From Gemmata obscuriglobus (GTDB lineage Bacteria; Planctomycetota; Planctomycetia; Gemmatales; Gemmataceae): a DNA stretch of 32,000 nucleotides. Position 1 is the first letter of the stretch. Every line of letters begins with the position of its first letter. Where the stretch lies: positions 5,040,001 to 5,072,000 of the forward strand of contig NZ_CP042911.1 in the NCBI RefSeq assembly GCF_008065095.1, read 5' to 3'. Shown in pieces: positions 706 to 8,402 of this stretch. Below the pieces are notes generated by a model. It was given only the letters and a program-made list of their open reading frames with translations. It searched no databases and was not told where the DNA came from. Position numbers and translations under genes: made by a program.

Positions 706-1605
706 ATGAACACGTCACCCGAGACGCTCGTCGAATACGGTCGGGCAATCGACGGCCACCAAATGGTAGAGCCGCCGGACGTGACCGCACTAGAACTCGA
801 ACCCAATCACCCCGGCGAACACGACGCCGAGTACGTCGCGCGCCGGCAGTACCTTTTTGACCTCACGCGAAGGCACAGGCTTGAGCGCCTCGGTCCGCCA
901 CTGATCGATTACACCGCCGAAGAAACTCGCGTGTGGCGTGAGGTCGCACCGAAGCTGCACGAACTGCACGACAAGTACGCGTGTGCCCTCTACCTCCGTG
1001 CGAAAGACGAACTTGCGATCACGGAAACCGAAATCCCCCAACTGAAAACTATCAGCGACCGCCTCGCGTGCGAAACGCAAATGCACCTAGTTCCGGCAGA
1101 GGGTGCGCTGCCGTACCGCACGTTCTACCAGTACATTGCCGGCCGCGGGTTCCCGGTCACGCAGTTCATCCGGCACGGTTCGCACCCGGAATTCACGCCG
1201 GAGCCGGACATGATCCACGACTGTCTGGGGCACGTGCCGCCCGTCATGAACCGGGATTACGCGGAGCTTCTGACGCTGATCGGCAAGGCCGCCGCGGCCA
1301 CCCCGCACGGCGACCAAGTGCTGGCGCTGAAGCGGTTCAGTTGGTTCAGCATCGAGTTCGGGCTGATCGAGGAGGCGGGCGAGGTAAAAGTGTTCGGCGC
1401 CGGCATCCTGTCGAGTACCGGCGAGATTCCGCACGCGCTGTTCTCACCGAGCGCAACCCGGCACCCGTTCGTAACGGACACGGTCATCGCCACGGACTAC
1501 GACCCGTCGCAGATGCAGAAGGACTTTTTCGTCGCGCCGTCGCTACTGTTCCTCCGGCGCGAGTTGGAAGCACTGGTCCGGCGGTTCGGTATACCTGTTC
1601 TCTGA
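706..1605 (+). CDS. phhA: phenylalanine 4-hydroxylase (biopterin-dependent aromatic amino acid hydroxylase)
   Basis: 299-aa ORF. PDMIHDCLGHVPP carries the iron-binding His pair, and SIEFGLIEE..KVFGAGILSS is typical of bacterial PhhA. GAGGAG lies 9 nt upstream of the ATG. Confidence 0.9.
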   Translation: MNTSPETLVEYGRAIDGHQMVEPPDVTALELEPNHPGEHDAEYVARRQYLFDLTRRHRLERLGPPLIDYTAEETRVWREVAPKLHELHDKYACALYLRAKDELAITETEIPQLKTISDRLACETQMHLVPAEGALPYRTFYQYIAGRGFPVTQFIRHGSHPEFTPEPDMIHDCLGHVPPVMNRDYAELLTLIGKAAAATPHGDQVLALKRFSWFSIEFGLIEEAGEVKVFGAGILSSTGEIPHALFSPSATRHPFVTDTVIATDYDPSQMQKDFFVAPSLLFLRRELEALVRRFGIPVL

Positions 1606-1675: not shown

Positions 1676-2776
1676 ATGGCAGACATTCCGCTCCGGAAGA
1701 TCGATCACGTCCGGTTCTTCGTCGGCAACGCGCGACAGAGCGCGTTCTTCTACCGGAACGCGTTCGGCTTCGACGTGGTCGCCTACGCCGGCCTCGAAAC
1801 CAAGGTGAAGCACGAGGCGGGATACGTCCTCAAGCAGGGCGAGATCACGTTCGTGCTCACCTCGCCGCTGTCCGAACAGCACCCGGAGAGCCGGCGGCTC
1901 GTGACCCACGGCGACGGCGTGATGGACATCGCGCTGGACGTGCCGAACGTGCGCGAAGCCTACGAGGAAGCGGTCCGCCGTGGCGCCAAAGGAGTGCGGC
2001 CCCCGGAAGCTCTCGAGGACGAGCACGGGGTGTTCGAGACCGCGGGCATCCTGGCTTACGGCGACACGACGCACACGTTCATCAACCGCGACCGCTACAA
2101 GGGCGCGTTCGCCCCGGGCTTCAAGCCGATGGCGCCGGACCGCTACCACCCGAGCACGGCGCGGCCCGTGGGGTTCGCGGCGATCGACCACCTGGTGGCG
2201 AACGTCGAAGAAGGCAAGATGGACGAATGGGTGAGCTTCTACCGGAACGTGCTCGGGTTCAACCAGCTCGTGTCGTTCGACGACAAGGACATCAGCACCG
2301 AGTACTCCGCACTCATGTCGAAGGTGGTGCAGAACGGCACGGGACGGATCAAGTTCCCGATTAACGAGCCGGCCCAGGCCAAGCGCCGCAGCCAGATCGA
2401 CGAGTACCTCCAGTATTACGGCGGCCCGGGGGTCCAGCACATCGCGCTGATCACCGGCGACATCGTCAAAACCGTCCGGGCGATGCGGGCCAACGACGTG
2501 TCGTTCCTGCGCGTCCCGCAGGCCTATTACGACGCGCTGGCCGACCGGGTCGGGGACATCAAGGAGGACATTCAAGAGCTGGCGGAGCTGGGCATCCTCG
2601 TGGACCGCGACGACGAAGGGTACATGCTCCAGATCTTCACCAAGCCGGTGGCCGACCGCCCGACGCTGTTCTTCGAGGTGATCCAGCGGCGCGGGTCCAA
2701 GAGCTTCGGTAAGGGGAACTTCAAGGCGCTGTTCGAGGCCATCGAGCGCGAGCAAGAACTCCGCGGAACGCTCTAA
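1676..2776 (+). CDS. hppD: 4-hydroxyphenylpyruvate dioxygenase
   Basis: 366-aa ORF with two VOC-fold halves. IDHVRFFVGNA is at the N-terminus. The C-terminal signature is GVQHIAL..LQIFTKP..RPTLFFEVIQRRGSKSFGKGNFKALFEAIEREQ. Confidence 0.95.
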   Translation: MADIPLRKIDHVRFFVGNARQSAFFYRNAFGFDVVAYAGLETKVKHEAGYVLKQGEITFVLTSPLSEQHPESRRLVTHGDGVMDIALDVPNVREAYEEAVRRGAKGVRPPEALEDEHGVFETAGILAYGDTTHTFINRDRYKGAFAPGFKPMAPDRYHPSTARPVGFAAIDHLVANVEEGKMDEWVSFYRNVLGFNQLVSFDDKDISTEYSALMSKVVQNGTGRIKFPINEPAQAKRRSQIDEYLQYYGGPGVQHIALITGDIVKTVRAMRANDVSFLRVPQAYYDALADRVGDIKEDIQELAELGILVDRDDEGYMLQIFTKPVADRPTLFFEVIQRRGSKSFGKGNFKALFEAIEREQELRGTL

Positions 2777-3030: not shown

Positions 3031-3999
3031 TCACCCGGAGGCGGCCAGCAAGCTCGTCACAAGCGCGTAGGCAAGGGCCGCCAAGGCGGCCCCACAGGGG
3101 ACGGTACTGACCCACGCGAGCAGGATCTCACCCGCCTTGCGCCAGTGTACCCGTCCGGTCGCCGCGCCCATCCCGCATAGCGACCCGACGCTCACGTGCG
3201 TGGTGCTTACAGGTAAGCTGTGCAGGCTGGCGGTGGTCACGAGGCCCGCGGTCACCAGACTGGCCGCGAACCCTTGGCCGGGGTTCATGTCCGTGACCTT
3301 CTTGCCGAGCGTTTCGGCCACGCGGGTGATGTCCAGTAGTCCACCTGCCGCGACCACAAACGCAACGATCACAATTCCTTCCCGGGGACCGATGGCAGGC
3401 ACGGCTACCATCAGGGCCGCCATCTTCGGCGTATCGTTCAGCCCGCGCGCGAAGCTGGCCGCGCCGGCGCTGAGAAAGTGCAACACGTCGAGCGGACGCG
3501 ACCGGCGGTCCGGCATGAGTCGCCCGCCTCGCAGAATCAGATACGCCGCGGCCCCGGCCAGCGCCGCGACCACCGGGCTAAAGAACAGCGGGTACAGGAA
3601 CTGCGTTCCCAGCGCACCGATCCGAACGTCGCCACCGCCGGCCAGTCCCGCGCCCACGAGGGCGCCAACCAGTGCGTGGGTGGTGGAGACCGGAAACCCG
3701 AACCGCGTGGCCAGGAAGCTGGTGAGCGCCGTGCCCAGCGCAACGGCGCAGACGAAGTGTCGCGAGGCGACCAACTCATCCGGAACGACCCCGCGCCCGC
3801 GGAACGCGAGCAGCATGTTCTCGGAGAGGAGCAGCGCGGCGAGCGAACCCGCGAACGTGGTCGCGGTGCCCCACAGCGCCGCCGCGCGGAGCGTCGTCGT
3901 CCCGCTCCCGTACAGCGAGGCCACGCCCTTGAAGTTGGCGTTGGCCCCGTTCGTAAACGCCACGGAACAAGCCGCGAAGAACAGAAGCGCGAGCAGCAT
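3031..3999 (-). CDS. PiT-family (PHO4) inorganic anion permease (phosphate/sulfate type)
   Basis: 322-aa polytopic membrane protein. The duplicated family motif appears as NGANANFKGVA near the N-terminus and RGLNDTPKMAA in the second half. It starts 6 nt after the rhodanese stop. Confidence 0.7.
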   Translation of the reverse strand: MLLALLFFAACSVAFTNGANANFKGVASLYGSGTTTLRAAALWGTATTFAGSLAALLLSENMLLAFRGRGVVPDELVASRHFVCAVALGTALTSFLATRFGFPVSTTHALVGALVGAGLAGGGDVRIGALGTQFLYPLFFSPVVAALAGAAAYLILRGGRLMPDRRSRPLDVLHFLSAGAASFARGLNDTPKMAALMVAVPAIGPREGIVIVAFVVAAGGLLDITRVAETLGKKVTDMNPGQGFAASLVTAGLVTTASLHSLPVSTTHVSVGSLCGMGAATGRVHWRKAGEILLAWVSTVPCGAALAALAYALVTSLLAASG

Positions 4000-4005
4000 G
4001 ACGGC

Positions 4006-4938
4006 CTACTTGGTCTTGTTCTCTTTCGTCTCGGCCGGGTGCTGCTTGAGGTGGGCGTACTCTTTCCACGAGCCCTCGTACAGCCGCACGTTCGGGTACT
4101 TGGCGACGTGCTTCAGGTAGAACCGCAGCAGGCTCCCCTCGCGGGACGTGCCGCAGTACACCAGGATCTCTTTATCCGCCGTCAGCCCGGCCGCTTCCAG
4201 TTCCGCCTTCACCTTCTCGAACGGCAGGAACTTGTGGGTGTTGTCCGGCTCCATGAGCCGCGCCCAGTGGAAGCTGATGGCGCCGGGGATGTGCCCCTTC
4301 CGCACCCAGATGTCGTCGTTGCCCAGGTACTCGTTGTGCGGCCGGGCGTCCGCCAGGACCGCCGTCGGCTTCCGCTTCAGGACATCGTCCACGGTCGCCG
4401 CGATTTCCGGGTGGCCCTTCTCGGGCAGCGCGCCCTTGGGGTTGCCGAAGTACTCCTGCGTGACCGGCAGTTTCTGCTTGGACCACTCGGGGAGCCCGCC
4501 GTCCACGATGCGGATGTGCTCGACCCCGAACTTCTCCAGCACGTAGGCCACCATGCTGGCGCTCAGGATCTCGTCGTTCGGCAGTTTGTCGCCGGTCGCG
4601 TAGATCAGATGCAACCGGCCCTTGTCCACCCCGGCGCGGACCAGCAGCACCTTGGTCAGGTCGTCGGGCAGGTACTGCACCGGAACCCCGCCGTCGGTGC
4701 CCCGGAGCGTGTCGAAGTTCAGGTGGTGCGCGGTCGGCAGGTGCCCGCGGAAGTAGTCCTTGTACCCGCCGCGTGTGTCCAGCACGATCGGCCGCTTGGC
4801 CGCGTCGGGGTTCTCGATCAGCTTCTTCGCCTCGGCCGGCGAGATGATTCCGATGTCGGCGCGGGCCGCCCCGGGCAACGCCAGAACCGCGGCCACAACG
4901 AGCAGCCGGGAAAACGAAACGGACCTGAGCAGTTGCAT
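4006..4938 (-). CDS. secreted tandem-rhodanese sulfurtransferase (thiosulfate sulfurtransferase-like)
   Basis: 310 aa. Signal peptide MQLLRSVSFSRLLVVAAVLALPGAARA. Two rhodanese-like halves are present. The active-site loop is VYCGTSREGS in the C-terminal domain. Confidence 0.85.
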   Translation of the reverse strand: MQLLRSVSFSRLLVVAAVLALPGAARADIGIISPAEAKKLIENPDAAKRPIVLDTRGGYKDYFRGHLPTAHHLNFDTLRGTDGGVPVQYLPDDLTKVLLVRAGVDKGRLHLIYATGDKLPNDEILSASMVAYVLEKFGVEHIRIVDGGLPEWSKQKLPVTQEYFGNPKGALPEKGHPEIAATVDDVLKRKPTAVLADARPHNEYLGNDDIWVRKGHIPGAISFHWARLMEPDNTHKFLPFEKVKAELEAAGLTADKEILVYCGTSREGSLLRFYLKHVAKYPNVRLYEGSWKEYAHLKQHPAETKENKTK

Positions 4939-5244
4939 GAGCGCGCGGCCTCCACCGTCGTGACACCAGCCCTGGTGACAAGGTATCGGAGCGGGCGGAG
5001 GTGACCAGCCTCATGTTCCCGGGCTCAGAGCTCGAGCGGCACCCGGGCGCACGCCCCCCACGATGCGATCGGACGGTCTGCCGCCAGTTCCGCGTGCGGC
5101 ACCTTCTGCGAGGGGACGTGAAACCCGAACGGCCGGTATGCTTGCGCGATTCGCCTTTGCCCCGGGCGCGTCGAACGCCATAATCACATGGCCATTTCCA
5201 GTTCCTGTGCGAGCCCGCCCGGCCGCCGCCACCGAGTCGCTCCC

Positions 5245-5958
5245 ATGCCGGCCCCGTTCCCGGTCGCGTCGCTGCGAGACTTTTACGCGTTCGAGCAGCA
5301 CGTCAAAACGTGCCGCGGGCACCGCGGGTTGGGAATGGTGCCGCAGTGGTACGAGGTGCCCGTCTTCTACTTCTCGAACCCCGCCGCGGTCATCGGAGAT
5401 GCTGACCCCGTTTGGGCTCCGCAGGGCAGTTCCGCACTCGACTACGAACTGGAGCTGGCGTGCGTGATCGGGGCGTCCGCGCGCGACCTGCCCGCGGACG
5501 ACGCGGCGCTCGACTGCGTGGCCGGGTTCACGATCATGAACGACTGGTCCGCACGCGACCTTCAGCGGGCGGAAATGGCGGTCGGGCTCGGACCGTCCAA
5601 AAGTAAGGATTTTGCCACCTCGCTCGGACCGCGACTCGTCCCGTTTGCCGACCTCCGAGAAGCATATCGCGACGGCCGGTTGTACCTCGCGATGACCGCG
5701 AGCGTCAACGGAAAGGTGTATTCGAGCGGCAACGCGGGTAGCATGTACTGGACGTGGCCGCAACTCCTGGCCCACGCGAGCCGCGACGCCGAGTTGCGCC
5801 CCGGCGACGTGATCGGCAGCGGCACCGTGGGGACCGGGTGCATTCTGGAGCTGACCCCCGAGGCCGTCGGGGGGTGGCTCCGACCGGGCGACGTTGTGGA
5901 ACTGTGCGTCGAGCGCCTGGGCTCGCTGCGAAACACTGTTGCGGAGCGTCCATCTTGA
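5245..5958 (+). CDS. fumarylacetoacetate hydrolase (FAH) family protein
   Basis: SLRDFYAFEQHV is at the N-terminus. GFTIMNDWSARDLQ, GPSKSKDFATSLGP and GDVIGSGTVGTG are FAH-fold motifs. The start could instead be the ATG at 5188. Confidence 0.85.
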   Translation: MPAPFPVASLRDFYAFEQHVKTCRGHRGLGMVPQWYEVPVFYFSNPAAVIGDADPVWAPQGSSALDYELELACVIGASARDLPADDAALDCVAGFTIMNDWSARDLQRAEMAVGLGPSKSKDFATSLGPRLVPFADLREAYRDGRLYLAMTASVNGKVYSSGNAGSMYWTWPQLLAHASRDAELRPGDVIGSGTVGTGCILELTPEAVGGWLRPGDVVELCVERLGSLRNTVAERPS

Positions 5959-6344
5959 CTTACGCTGAGCAGCTCGCGGAACTCACTGTAACGGACATTT
6001 TGCTCGGGGCGCGGGTCGCTCCGCTGCGCAACCTCGAAGCGATCCTGAAGTGGGCACCGGGTGCGGGGATCGACTTCGCCAGGATCGACTTGGTTCAACA
6101 GGACGAGTACAGCTACGACCTGCTGCTCCCGCTCCCCGATTCGCGCTGGCTGAACTTCGGTGTGTCCTGATTCGGTGAACTGGCGGCGGTCGCCGTCTGG
6201 GATCACAAACCGAGTGCCGACGAACTGCTCGCGCGGCGCGTCCGCCTCGGCTGGGTGCCAACCTGTTCGCTCCTCAAGAACGGCCCAACGGTGCTCGGCC
6301 ACGCGTCCTCGCTCGGCCGGGCGCCTGAACGCCACGGGTCGTAA
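5955..6344 (+). CDS. hypothetical protein whose frame continues through an in-frame TGA at 6168-6170 (candidate Sec/readthrough or disrupted gene); the strict ORF is 5955..6170
   Basis: The TTG start overlaps the FAH stop (tTGA), with GGAG 8 nt upstream. The same frame stays open and coding-like for 57 codons after the TGA, to the TAA at 6342-6344. No family recognised. Confidence 0.4.
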
Positions 6345-6392
6345 TGTCCGCGACAGTTCGACCTACGCTCTGACGACTTGGGACCCGAAGAA

Positions 6393-7559
6393 ATGCAATA
6401 CCTCTCCCGCGGCAGCGTCCCGAAAAAGCGTCACACGCGGCACCGGACCGACCCCGGCTTTAAGGGCGAGGGCCTGTACTACGAAGAGGTCATCACCACG
6501 CAGGGGTTCTCGCGGGCGCACTCGTTCGCGTACCACCTGCGCCCGCCGACACGCGTGAAGCACGTTGAATCGGCAGGCATTCAGTCGATCGAAGTCGCCC
6601 CGCAAGACGTGTTGCGGCACCACCACCTCAAAAGCAGCGCGATGCCCGCAGGCGGTGATCCGGTCTCTGGTCGCGTCCCGATGTTGACCAACGCCGATGT
6701 CACGCTCTGGCGGTGCCGCCCGACGCAGCCTCAGGCCGAACTGTTCCGCAACGCGCTCGCGGACGAACTCGTCTTCGTTCACAGGGGGGCGGGCCGGTTG
6801 CTAACCCACTTCGGAGTGCTGCCGTTCAAGCCCTTCGATTACGTGCTGATCCCGCGCTGCACCACTTACAAGCTCGAATTCGATCCCGGCGTGCAACCCG
6901 ATCTACTGGTGATCGAGTCCGCGGGCACAATTAACATCCCGCCCAAGTACCTGAACCACGACGGCCAACTGCGGCTCGGCGCGCCGTACTGCGAGCGCGA
7001 CCTGCACGGCCCTACCGACCTGCTCGTCATCGACGAAGAGAGAGACACCCCGGTCCTCATCAAGGACGGCACCCGGCTGTCGCGATACGTGCTCGCGAGC
7101 CACCCCTTCGATGTCGTCGGCTGGGACGGGCTCGTGTACCCGTTCACATTTAACGCCGACGACTTCGAGCCGATCACCGGGACGATCCACCAGCCGCCGC
7201 CGATCCATCTGACGTTCGAAACGTCGGGGTTCGTGGTCTGCACGTTCGCGCCGCGGGTGCTCGACACGCACCCCGAGGCGATCAAGGTTCCGTACGCGCA
7301 CAGCAACGTCGAAAGCGACGAGGTGCTGTACTACGTGCGCGGCAAATTCGGGTCGCGCCGCGGCGTGGAAGAAGCGTCGTTCACGCTGCACCCGCACGGC
7401 ATCCCGCACGGGCCACACCCCGGTACGATTGTCGCCAGCCGGGATGTGAAGTGGACCGACGAACTGGCCGTCATGGTGGACACGTTCCGACCCCTATTTG
7501 TGACCAAACAGGCGATGGAACTGGACGAGCCGAAGTACCCGTACTCGTGGCTGGACTGA
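6393..7559 (+). CDS. hmgA: homogentisate 1,2-dioxygenase (short bacterial type)
   Basis: MQYLSRGSVPKKRHT...YYEEVITTQGFS..S.AYHLRPPTRV resembles the N-terminus of the ~390-aa HmgA group. A cupin core and LHPHGIPHGPHPG follow. The ORF-track start (TTG 6378) is probably too early. Confidence 0.8.
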   Translation: MQYLSRGSVPKKRHTRHRTDPGFKGEGLYYEEVITTQGFSRAHSFAYHLRPPTRVKHVESAGIQSIEVAPQDVLRHHHLKSSAMPAGGDPVSGRVPMLTNADVTLWRCRPTQPQAELFRNALADELVFVHRGAGRLLTHFGVLPFKPFDYVLIPRCTTYKLEFDPGVQPDLLVIESAGTINIPPKYLNHDGQLRLGAPYCERDLHGPTDLLVIDEERDTPVLIKDGTRLSRYVLASHPFDVVGWDGLVYPFTFNADDFEPITGTIHQPPPIHLTFETSGFVVCTFAPRVLDTHPEAIKVPYAHSNVESDEVLYYVRGKFGSRRGVEEASFTLHPHGIPHGPHPGTIVASRDVKWTDELAVMVDTFRPLFVTKQAMELDEPKYPYSWLD

Positions 7560-7710: not shown

Positions 7711-7796
7711 CAACCGACGCCGCTGCCTTGCGGTTTCTCTCGTGCTTTTTTTGCTTCTTCGCAGCGGTTCTGCCTTCGCACCTACTCGGAAGCTCT

Positions 7797-8402
7797 ATGC
7801 AGATCGACCCTTCGACCGCACCTGTGCCAAACGTCTACCAGCACCTAACGGGCGTGGTAACGCCGCGACCCATCGCGTGGGTGACCACACTCTCACCTGC
7901 GGACGTGGTGAACCTGGCACCGTTCAGCTTCTTCAATGCGTTTGGTGCCAACCCGCCGACCGTCGTGTTCTCCCCGACTCTTCGGCGCGACGGGACCAAG
8001 AAGGATACCCTTCTGAACTTGGAAAAGCTCGGCGAATTCGTGGTACACACCGCCACGGCCCCGCTCGCGGACAAGGTGAACCTCTCGTCCAAAGAGGTGC
8101 CACCGGACGAGAGCGAGATCAGCCTGACGGGTTTGAGTACGATCGCGGGCGTGAAGGTGAAGGTGCCCCGGCTCGCGGAATCGCCGGTTGCGCTGGAGTG
8201 CGTGGTCCGGCAAATCATCCCGTGCGGAACCGGACCGATCGCGGCGAACCTCGTCATCGGCGAGGTGGTGCTCTTTCACATTGCCGACGACGTGCTGGAC
8301 GCGAGGGGCGCGGTCGACCCGCGAAAGCTGCGAACGGTGGCCCGACTTGGTGGCGCGTTCTGGTGCCACACGTCGGACCTGTTCGAGTTGGAGCGCCCGT
8401 AG
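7797..8402 (+). CDS. flavin reductase-like (FMN-binding split-barrel) protein
   Basis: VYQHLTGVVTPRPIAWVTTLS..VNLAPFSFFNAFGANPP and ...ALECVVRQI are typical of the Flavin_Reduct domain. The start is set at the ATG of MQIDPST. The ORF-track start at 7728 lies inside the palindromic element. Confidence 0.8.
   Translation: MQIDPSTAPVPNVYQHLTGVVTPRPIAWVTTLSPADVVNLAPFSFFNAFGANPPTVVFSPTLRRDGTKKDTLLNLEKLGEFVVHTATAPLADKVNLSSKEVPPDESEISLTGLSTIAGVKVKVPRLAESPVALECVVRQIIPCGTGPIAANLVIGEVVLFHIADDVLDARGAVDPRKLRTVARLGGAFWCHTSDLFELERP

Follow-up and report, generated by a model that had tools for sequence, protein, structure and literature searches.

A small gene at positions 5955-6344 of a 32,000-nucleotide (nt) stretch of DNA from Gemmata obscuriglobus (contig NZ_CP042911.1; the whole stretch is called the window here) very probably encodes a selenoprotein, in which the in-frame UGA at 6168-6170 is recoded as selenocysteine (Sec) under the direction of an mRNA hairpin at 6182-6197. 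A first-pass annotation, made from the letters of the window, had already proposed that one open reading frame (ORF) passes through this UGA as Sec and that a Sec insertion sequence (SECIS) of the Escherichia coli fdhF type follows it. This core proposal is strongly supported by the comparison of orthologous loci, in which the TGA is conserved throughout, the part downstream of it is under purifying selection, and homologues with Cys at the site occur. Further support is provided by compensatory changes in the stem, the invariant loop GU and spacing, the loss of the hairpin in most homologues with a sense codon, and literature records of Sec use in the genus. On these comparative data, chance, sequencing error or a pseudogene is untenable as an explanation.

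The coordinates that had been assigned to the Shine-Dalgarno-like GGAG, the TTG start, the TGA and the closing TAA all agree with the sequence (Table 1), as do those of the hairpin, which is separated from the TGA by 11 nt and contains one G-U pair. The TTG (5955-5957) overlaps the stop codon (TGA, 5956-5958) of the upstream gene for an FAH-family hydrolase, and the residues spanning the predicted Sec read FGVS-U-FGELAAVAVWDHK. In the window, which has a G+C content of 65%, the G+C fractions at codon positions 1, 2 and 3 are 0.66, 0.39 and 0.80 before the TGA and 0.75, 0.56 and 0.81 after it, matching the flanking FAH and HmgA-like genes; the values counted by hand in the first-pass annotation for the downstream part (about 81% at the third position versus about 56% at the second) were reproduced by computation. 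Its two further remarks on this part also hold, as the alternative frame downstream of the TGA is rich in Arg, Ser and Thr, and the earliest canonical in-frame start past the TGA is a GTG at codon 29. A frameshift was rejected as an explanation, since the same frame runs on past the TGA. A reassigned genetic code was excluded as well, since TGA serves as an ordinary stop in this genome, terminating the FAH gene, and also ends one third of the ORFs of the family.

Orthologous loci were fetched from Frigoriglobus tundricola (CP053452), Gemmata sp. SH-PL17 (CP011271), 30 species-representative genomes, 80 metagenome contigs chosen solely by the peptide pattern [TM]AVA[VI]WDH, and two long-read contigs. 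The nearest relative among them is Gemmata algarum JC673 (NZ_JAXBLV01), with 96% protein identity across the whole locus. The tabulated set comprises the 110 stop-bearing loci that could be analysed, namely 32 of Gemmataceae type (the window and 31 others) and 78 from metagenomes. The homologous codon is TGA in all 110 and never TAA or TAG, with coding sequence continuing beyond it, and the two long-read contigs, which stand outside the tabulated set, have an in-frame stop at the same codon. In contrast, the true ends of the same ORFs are spread over the three stop codons (TAA 39, TGA 39, TAG 29). A protein search with the read-through product as the query retrieved 281 homologues, almost all of exactly 71 amino acids (aa) and therefore ending at the TGA site, whose hosts are Gemmata, Frigoriglobus and Gemmataceae metagenome-assembled genomes (MAGs). 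The G. massiliana orthologue, RefSeq WP_162666520.1, is a member of the P0037 cluster and is annotated as a 71-aa hypothetical protein.

A few loci stand apart from this pattern in other respects. In locus L110 (762-767), a TAG stands straight after the TGA where the nearest relatives have CAG, and in L033 a TAG lies within the N-terminal half (around 2561); each may be a pseudogene or an assembly error. Three loci (L014, L015 and L032), labelled as Isosphaera sp., Singulisphaera sp. and Bacteroidales MAGs, bear a Gemmataceae-type gene, and the first two also hold a full PAH-HPPD-FAH-HmgA-like cluster (the genes are described below) with 77-90% identity to Gemmata. These three bins are probably mislabelled or contaminated.

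The first-pass annotation had made its case depend on conservation of the 57 codons downstream of the TGA, and these are conserved at the protein level in all loci. The frame stays open for 40-78 codons past the TGA in every locus whose ORF end lies inside the fetched sequence, with the exception of L110, and a conserved peptide (...AVAVW.H.P.A.ELL..R...GW.P......LGHA...) runs from Gemmata to Acidobacteria. Over codons 11-34 after the TGA, the column entropies at codon positions 1, 2 and 3 are 0.45, 0.39 and 1.18 bits in Gemmataceae and 0.74, 0.62 and 1.58 bits in the metagenome loci, so that the third position is 2.5-3 times as variable as the first two. This pattern is that of purifying selection on a protein, which is as strong on the downstream half as ahead of the TGA. 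When cluster representatives were searched exhaustively with one full-length homologue (P0011, 134 aa), 146 clusters were returned, of which about 60 stop directly ahead of the site, about 55 start directly past it and about 25 are full length; those beginning after the site start at any internal Met or Val available to the gene caller. P0011 is 50% identical to the window product and aligns across the TGA, with Arg (codon CGA) opposite to it. The AlphaFold2 model of P0011, built with 22 full-length relatives, is a single compact domain (predicted local distance difference test score, pLDDT, 91.3; predicted template-modelling score, pTM, 0.83), and the site is placed in a tight beta-hairpin turn between strands 73-80 and 84-91. 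With the site in such a turn of one compact predicted domain, the two halves cannot be independent folding units.

Folding of 6179-6200, which holds the hairpin, gives a minimum free energy (MFE) of -10.2 kcal/mol, and folding of 6168-6215 gives -17.3 kcal/mol. The z-score (-1.3 to -1.9) alone is non-significant in such G+C-rich sequence, as it also is for the genuine fdhF SECIS of E. coli; the significance of the hairpin derives from the comparative data, not from folding energy. The composite motif (TGA, 11 nt, 6-bp stem and RGUY loop) occurs a single time in the window, both strands counted, against about 0.04 occurrences expected from first-order Markov simulations. In total, 99 unique TGA-bearing sequences were aligned, giving 97 distinct rows of 63 nt, and the upper stem is paired in 97.3% of the cells of these 97 sequences. 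The spacer is always 11 nt in all loci while its sequence varies at synonymous sites, and the central GU of the loop is invariant (99/99 unique sequences), the loop being GGUC, or AGUU in 14 of the 99.

Both-sided changes, compensatory and located at synonymous sites, were found at three stem pairs. Pair 1 is G-C in 52 sequences, C-G in 25, A-U in 2, G-U in 2 and unpaired in 16; pair 2 is A-U in 76, G-U in 19 and G-C in 2; pair 4 is G-C in 86, G-U in 6 and A-U in 5, all five of the 5' A's facing U. The first and fourth loop positions (6188 and 6191 in the window) also covary, with G..C in 84 sequences, A..U in 13 and mixed combinations in none, which suggests that these two bases pair or are read together, exposing just the invariant GU. 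The observed covariation score was reached by 0 of 500 column shuffles, and slid controls were all far lower. Codon bias cannot explain the stem pattern, since the two Ala codons within the element use disjoint third bases (G/A versus C/T), while fourfold sites outside use all four. The MFE structure of the single sequence also contains a longer lower stem (columns 3-9 with 42-48), which was rejected because it is 62.6% paired and its constant pairs are due to Gly and Pro codons that do not vary.

Full-length homologues in which the site is a sense codon also occur. In 35 of them the aligned residue is Cys in 14, Trp in 10, Arg in 4, Ser in 4, and Leu, Gly and Pro in one each; the seven codons read directly are TGT, TGC, TGC, TGG, CGA, GGG and CGC. 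With the exception of Pro, these residues are precisely those whose codons differ from TGA by a single nucleotide, a pattern which suggests that an ancestral TGA was lost repeatedly and independently. The most frequent residue is Cys, although it is reached from TGA by transversion, and this is the Sec/Cys pairing by which selenoproteins are recognised. The hairpin is absent in five of the seven sense-codon homologues whose nucleotide sequence was read (three with Cys, one with Trp, one with Arg CGC) and carries one mismatch in the Gly form. To judge from these sequences, the hairpin is a feature of the RNA that goes together with the TGA. In two full-length homologues (P0274 and P0285), about 15 residues round the site look like the usual sequence translated in another frame, as in YRHDLTRRRDGSCRLDH; it seems that paired compensating frameshifts, or assembly errors, bypass the TGA there.

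Decoding would be expected to proceed along the canonical bacterial pathway. The ribosome would arrive at the UGA while the mRNA just downstream is folded as the 6-bp hairpin with its GGUC loop, SelB carrying Sec-tRNA(Sec) would bind the exposed loop G and U and deliver selenocysteine, and translation would resume for 57 codons to the TAA at 6342-6344; failed decoding would release a fragment of 71 aa. Identifiers for the selA, selB, selC and selD genes of G. obscuriglobus were given by Kim et al. 2016 (PMC4807772 Table S8), and G. obscuriglobus UQM 2246 was recorded as Sec-utilising with three selenoprotein genes (Peng et al. 2016, PMC5029168 supplement). With these two records, the genus can be taken to decode Sec; nothing else relevant was found in a search of the literature on Gemmataceae and selenium. 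Neither a gene for tRNA-Sec nor a sel gene was detected in the window or the fetched loci by tRNA scans and Pfam typing of 14 further window ORFs, a result that is uninformative.

Several observations weigh against recoding as Sec. The first-pass annotation had offered a possible lower stem GUGA/UCAC (6175-6178 with 6203-6206), and this proved not to be general: it is present in the window and paired in 55.7% over the 97 distinct orthologous sequences, among which no conserved lower stem was found. The bulged U17 needed by E. coli SelB is not present in any locus, the 5' arm having 6 nt, all paired, and an Rfam scan of 5900-6450 at E <= 10 gave two chance matches and no SECIS family. The hairpin is intact in the Arg (CGA) homologue P0011, the one such case; its codon is a single transition from TGA and looks like a recent conversion from it. 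A non-Cys residue occupies the site in 21 of the 35 sense-codon homologues. Sec in selenoproteins is normally replaced by Cys only, and other replacements are unusual. This variety shows that the side chain at the site is not indispensable for the fold. A G. obscuriglobus orthologue was not found among the matches listed, nor in ten further 71-aa clusters that were looked up. Sec decoding in the source genome, and the machinery of the carrier genomes in general, is taken from the G. obscuriglobus literature; SelB dependence and selenium incorporation would follow from that literature and from the likeness to fdhF.

Some of these points would also fit another kind of decoding, namely programmed read-through independent of SelB, in which a near-cognate tRNA (Trp, Arg or Cys) inserts an ordinary residue, the hairpin perhaps slows the release factor, and the 71-aa product may dominate. 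Trp, the second commonest residue at the site, and the Arg, Ser, Leu and Gly that are also tolerated there would suit such read-through, for instance by tRNA-Trp, and so would the literature basis of the Sec machinery in the carrier genomes. Generic read-through, however, would not need the invariant loop GU and the exact 11-nt spacing, which match the SelB-binding element of fdhF across Planctomycetes and Acidobacteria; Cys is enriched at the site above mutational expectation, and the UGA is followed by U or C, a context that bears no particular mark of leakiness. No hairpin-stimulated UGA read-through other than that by SECIS and SelB is known in bacteria. Such read-through is accordingly given a small chance of being right, and recoding as Sec is preferred.

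The same comparisons bear on two explanations in which the UGA is simply a stop. If the gene were split, a separately initiated C-terminal peptide would assemble with the 71-aa peptide, or the latter would function alone while the downstream part is kept for another reason. In many metagenomes the two halves are indeed called as ORFs of their own, but the C-terminal halves so called start wherever an internal Met or Val is available, the window offers no canonical in-frame start before codon 29, and the break would fall in the beta-hairpin turn of one compact predicted domain. Moreover, at a plain stop all three stop codons should be met, as they are at the real ORF ends, and the conserved hairpin with its compensatory changes would be left unexplained, which makes a split gene very unlikely. 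A pseudogene or sequencing error private to this strain has practically no chance: the presence of the stop codon speaks for it and nothing more, and it is refuted by the presence of the same TGA across 110 independent loci, whether of isolates, MAGs or metagenomes, together with the purifying selection downstream.

The predicted selenoprotein belongs to a family of about 115-140 aa which occurs in Gemmataceae (Planctomycetota) and in Acidobacteriota (Blastocatellia/Pyrinomonadaceae), with a predicted alpha/beta fold and no detectable relative. The source names in the second clade are Acidobacteria, Blastocatellia or Pyrinomonadaceae (647 matches), and the family is common in soil Planctomycetes and Acidobacteria. 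The window protein has no match in Pfam-A or NCBIfam at E <= 1, and 23 full-length relatives have no substantial one at E <= 0.1. Nothing was returned when PDB sequences were searched with the profile, and a fold search of the PDB with the P0011 model gave a best E of 0.12 and template-modelling (TM) scores below 0.36. Conserved positions, in the numbering of the window protein, are Gln49-Asp50-Glu51, Asp55, Gly74, Trp82, Pro86, Leu91-Leu92, Arg95, Gly99-Trp100, Pro102, Gly115 and Ala117. The Cys of a GHAAC motif near the C-terminus is found in most family members and is invariant in the Acidobacteria-type clade; core Gemmata have GHASSL or GHAAKL instead, but carry a Cys in PTCSLL where others have PTPS (Cys104 in the window, 6264-6266). 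From the alignment, this PTC cysteine looks like a relocated partner cysteine for Sec72.

Table 1. Features of the predicted selenoprotein gene and its neighbours (window coordinates)
Feature	Position	Strand	Remarks
Shine-Dalgarno-like GGAG	5943-5946	+	8 nt ahead of the start codon; read directly from the sequence
Whole predicted selenoprotein gene	5955-6344	+	TTG start, 71 codons, Sec-UGA, 57 codons, TAA; product 129 aa
N-terminal coding part	5955-6167	+	71 codons; alone annotated publicly as a 71-aa hypothetical protein
In-frame TGA, predicted Sec codon	6168-6170	+	Residue 72; TGA in 110/110 orthologous loci
Spacer from UGA to hairpin	6171-6181	+	11 nt, codons Phe-Gly-Glu-Leu; length invariant in 110 loci
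Predicted SECIS upper stem-loop	6182-6197	+	5' arm GGCGGC 6182-6187; loop GGUC 6188-6191; 3' arm GCCGUC 6192-6197
C-terminal coding part	6171-6341	+	57 codons; would be translated only upon UGA decoding; stop TAA 6342-6344
FAH-family hydrolase	5188-5958	+	PF01557, E = 7.7e-55; stop overlaps the start of the selenoprotein gene
Divergent homogentisate-1,2-dioxygenase-like protein (HmgA-like)	6393-7559	+	388 aa; HgmA_N 24.1 bits, HgmA_C 18.6 bits, TIGR01015 42.5 bits (cut-off 510)
Phenylalanine-4-hydroxylase-like gene (PAH)	706-1605	+	tblastn, 82% identity to the Pfam-typed gene of locus L002 (Biopterin_H)
4-Hydroxyphenylpyruvate dioxygenase gene (HPPD)	1676-2776	+	tblastn, 88% identity to the Pfam-typed gene of locus L002 (Glyoxalase x2)

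The gene lies in a tyrosine-catabolism cluster whose order in Gemmataceae-type loci is PAH - HPPD - (Uma2) - (FAH) - selenoprotein gene - HmgA-like. The HmgA-like gene is its most constant partner and comes directly after it in almost every Gemmataceae-type locus, as well as in L001 and P0122, which are more distant, while FAH adjoins the gene in most Gemmataceae loci and is missing from the cluster in several. The HmgA-like protein is very divergent, with an HgmA_N score just above the Pfam threshold and an HgmA_C score just below it, and its substrate is not to be taken for granted. The 78 metagenome loci belong to the other clade or clades, the Acidobacteria-type one among them, and for 75 of these loci the recovered contig of 1-6 kb holds no gene for HPPD, an HmgA-like protein or FAH; ten neighbouring ORFs typed in six metagenome loci vary (NHL repeat, BrkB, amidohydrolase, SCO1, GNAT, SnoaL, acyl-CoA synthetase, YbbR). 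The link with homogentisate metabolism is real but clade-specific.

Other genes are variably associated with the cluster. A Uma2-family gene (PF05685) is inserted between HPPD and FAH or the selenoprotein gene in some loci (L002 7426-7995, L003 6713-7285 and other Gemmataceae loci). In the window, a PHO4-family transporter gene (3031-3999) and a gene for a two-domain rhodanese (4006-4938), both on the minus strand, lie between HPPD and FAH; the wider spacing from HPPD to FAH in G. algarum (L005) suggests a similar insert, and most other Gemmataceae loci are tighter. A link with selenium handling has been drawn both for rhodaneses and for transporters of the phosphate type, and their placement near a selenoprotein gene may or may not be coincidence. 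A flavin-reductase-like gene (PF01613) follows the HmgA-like gene at 7728-8402, and a PF01613 gene is found downstream in L121 too; it is possibly part of the same functional module.

The position of the gene had led the first-pass annotation to suggest that it supplies the missing maleylacetoacetate isomerase of the pathway, that is, a glutathione-independent enzyme with Sec as the nucleophile acting between the HmgA and FAH steps. This suggestion did not stand up well and is quite improbable. It is favoured by synteny within the Gemmataceae-type clade, where the gene immediately precedes the HmgA-like gene in nearly all loci, often lying between FAH and HmgA-like within the PAH-HPPD cluster, and no isomerase of the glutathione S-transferase (GST) type was seen in the cluster. 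The likeness to the GST-zeta isomerase (maiA/hmgC) extends to this position and to this clade only. The window protein has no GST domain, and neither its sequence nor its fold resembles that of GST-zeta, of maleate isomerase or of a PDB entry. Members of the family are also met away from homogentisate genes, tyrosine-pathway genes having been found near three of the 78 loci of the other clade or clades within 1-6 kb, and the adjacent FAH is itself absent from several Gemmataceae loci. In addition, the putative nucleophile is not indispensable, as 21 of the 35 sense-codon homologues (60%) have Trp, Arg, Ser, Leu, Gly or Pro in its place. Some FAH-family enzymes hydrolyse the maleyl form directly, so that an isomerase may not be missing at all.

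A tentative guess at the function is that of a small accessory protein for selenol- or thiol-based redox chemistry or metal handling, with Q-D-E-x-x-x-D, G-H-A-A-C and the Sec as candidate site residues. In the Gemmataceae-type clade, the best guess would be that it serves the Fe(II) dioxygenases of tyrosine catabolism, chiefly the HmgA-like enzyme. A more speculative and rather unlikely option is that the Sec codon is kept not for catalysis but as a translational gate dependent on selenium and SelB, which in Gemmataceae perhaps ties tyrosine catabolism, through the operon with HmgA-like, to selenium or redox status; alternatively, the protein would be a selenoenzyme of new fold acting on the product of homogentisate ring cleavage. 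A gate is conceivable because the site, a surface beta-turn in the model, accepts Trp, Arg, Ser, Leu and Gly, yet the UGA and its SECIS-like hairpin have long been held in two phyla.

Recognition of the Sec codon would correct the present calls of 71-aa hypothetical proteins, and hundreds of database entries of the family would turn out to be truncated halves. The habitat is unusual, in that the family is abundant in soil and freshwater Planctomycetes and in Acidobacteria. Cultured Gemmataceae are aerobes, and the selenoproteomes of Planctomycetes and Acidobacteria are small and little studied. The predicted Sec lies in a beta-turn, no CxxU or UxxC motif accompanies it, and relatives have Trp, Arg, Ser or Leu in its place as well as Cys. 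This raises the question of the role of selenium in this protein, for which the conserved pairing with the HmgA-like dioxygenase in Gemmataceae offers a testable handle. The very short, strongly covarying element (6 bp and an N-GU-N' loop) would also be a good test case for SECIS models and selenoprotein gene finders.

In the catalogue of prokaryotic selenoproteins, 119 families have been tabulated, each with a domain model (2026 review, PMC13188914), while BSepDB uses 111. All 119 families in Table 1 of that review carry a Pfam, NCBIfam, TIGRFAM, cd or PANTHER model, and the window protein and its 23 full-length relatives match none of those scanned. The family therefore seems to be an undescribed one, matching no Pfam, NCBIfam or TIGRFAM model of the catalogued families (those covered by cd or PANTHER models only were not scanned directly), and if so it would add to the catalogue a selenoprotein family without a Pfam or NCBIfam model or a detectable structural relative. 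The support is of the same kind as for other small selenoproteins predicted from sequence (DG, DW and DF of deep-Sep; GOS_B and GOS_C; OS_HP3-5), namely TGA/Cys pairs, orthologues with TGA and an adjacent bacterial SECIS (bSECIS) (PMC12013277, PMC13188914). Unlike these, the window protein has no CxxU/UxxC redox motif and no thioredoxin-like fold, and most of its sense-codon relatives show a replacement other than Cys.

In the published bSECIS model (PMC13188914), the loop has 3-9 nt and the upper stem 4-16 bp, at least one of the first two loop bases is a G, with G or U usually next to it, the loop lies 16-37 nt from the UGA, and the MFE does not exceed -7.5 kcal/mol. The hairpin of the window falls within all of these ranges, with its 4-nt loop and 6-bp stem, its loop G, 17 nt from the UGA (the 11-nt spacer and the 6-nt arm) and -10.2 kcal/mol, and the covariation of loop positions 1 and 4 resembles the N1-G-[G/U]-N-N2 pattern of the model. 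The closest counterpart is the SECIS of E. coli fdhF, whose upper stem-loop has 17 nt and lies 11 nt from the UGA, with U17, G23 and U24 as conserved bases and U17 and G23 as SelB-binding sites (PMC8659212). The geometry given for it in the first-pass annotation proved exact: the 46-nt sequence, with the UGA, 11 nt and GGUUGCA-GGUC-UGCACC, was found in the fdhF gene of 5419 of 5426 E. coli genomes. Both elements have exactly 11 nt after the UGA, a short G+C-rich stem and a GGUC tetraloop, and both lie inside the coding sequence and constrain the peptide (AAVAVW in the window gene, across whose orthologues the loop G and U are invariant). They differ in that the fdhF loop starts at +22, owing to the bulged U17, whereas that of the window starts at +21, with a 6-nt arm and no bulge, and the fdhF host protein, formate dehydrogenase, is unrelated to the window protein. 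By analogy, the element of the window would work like that of fdhF, as another subtype of the same kind.

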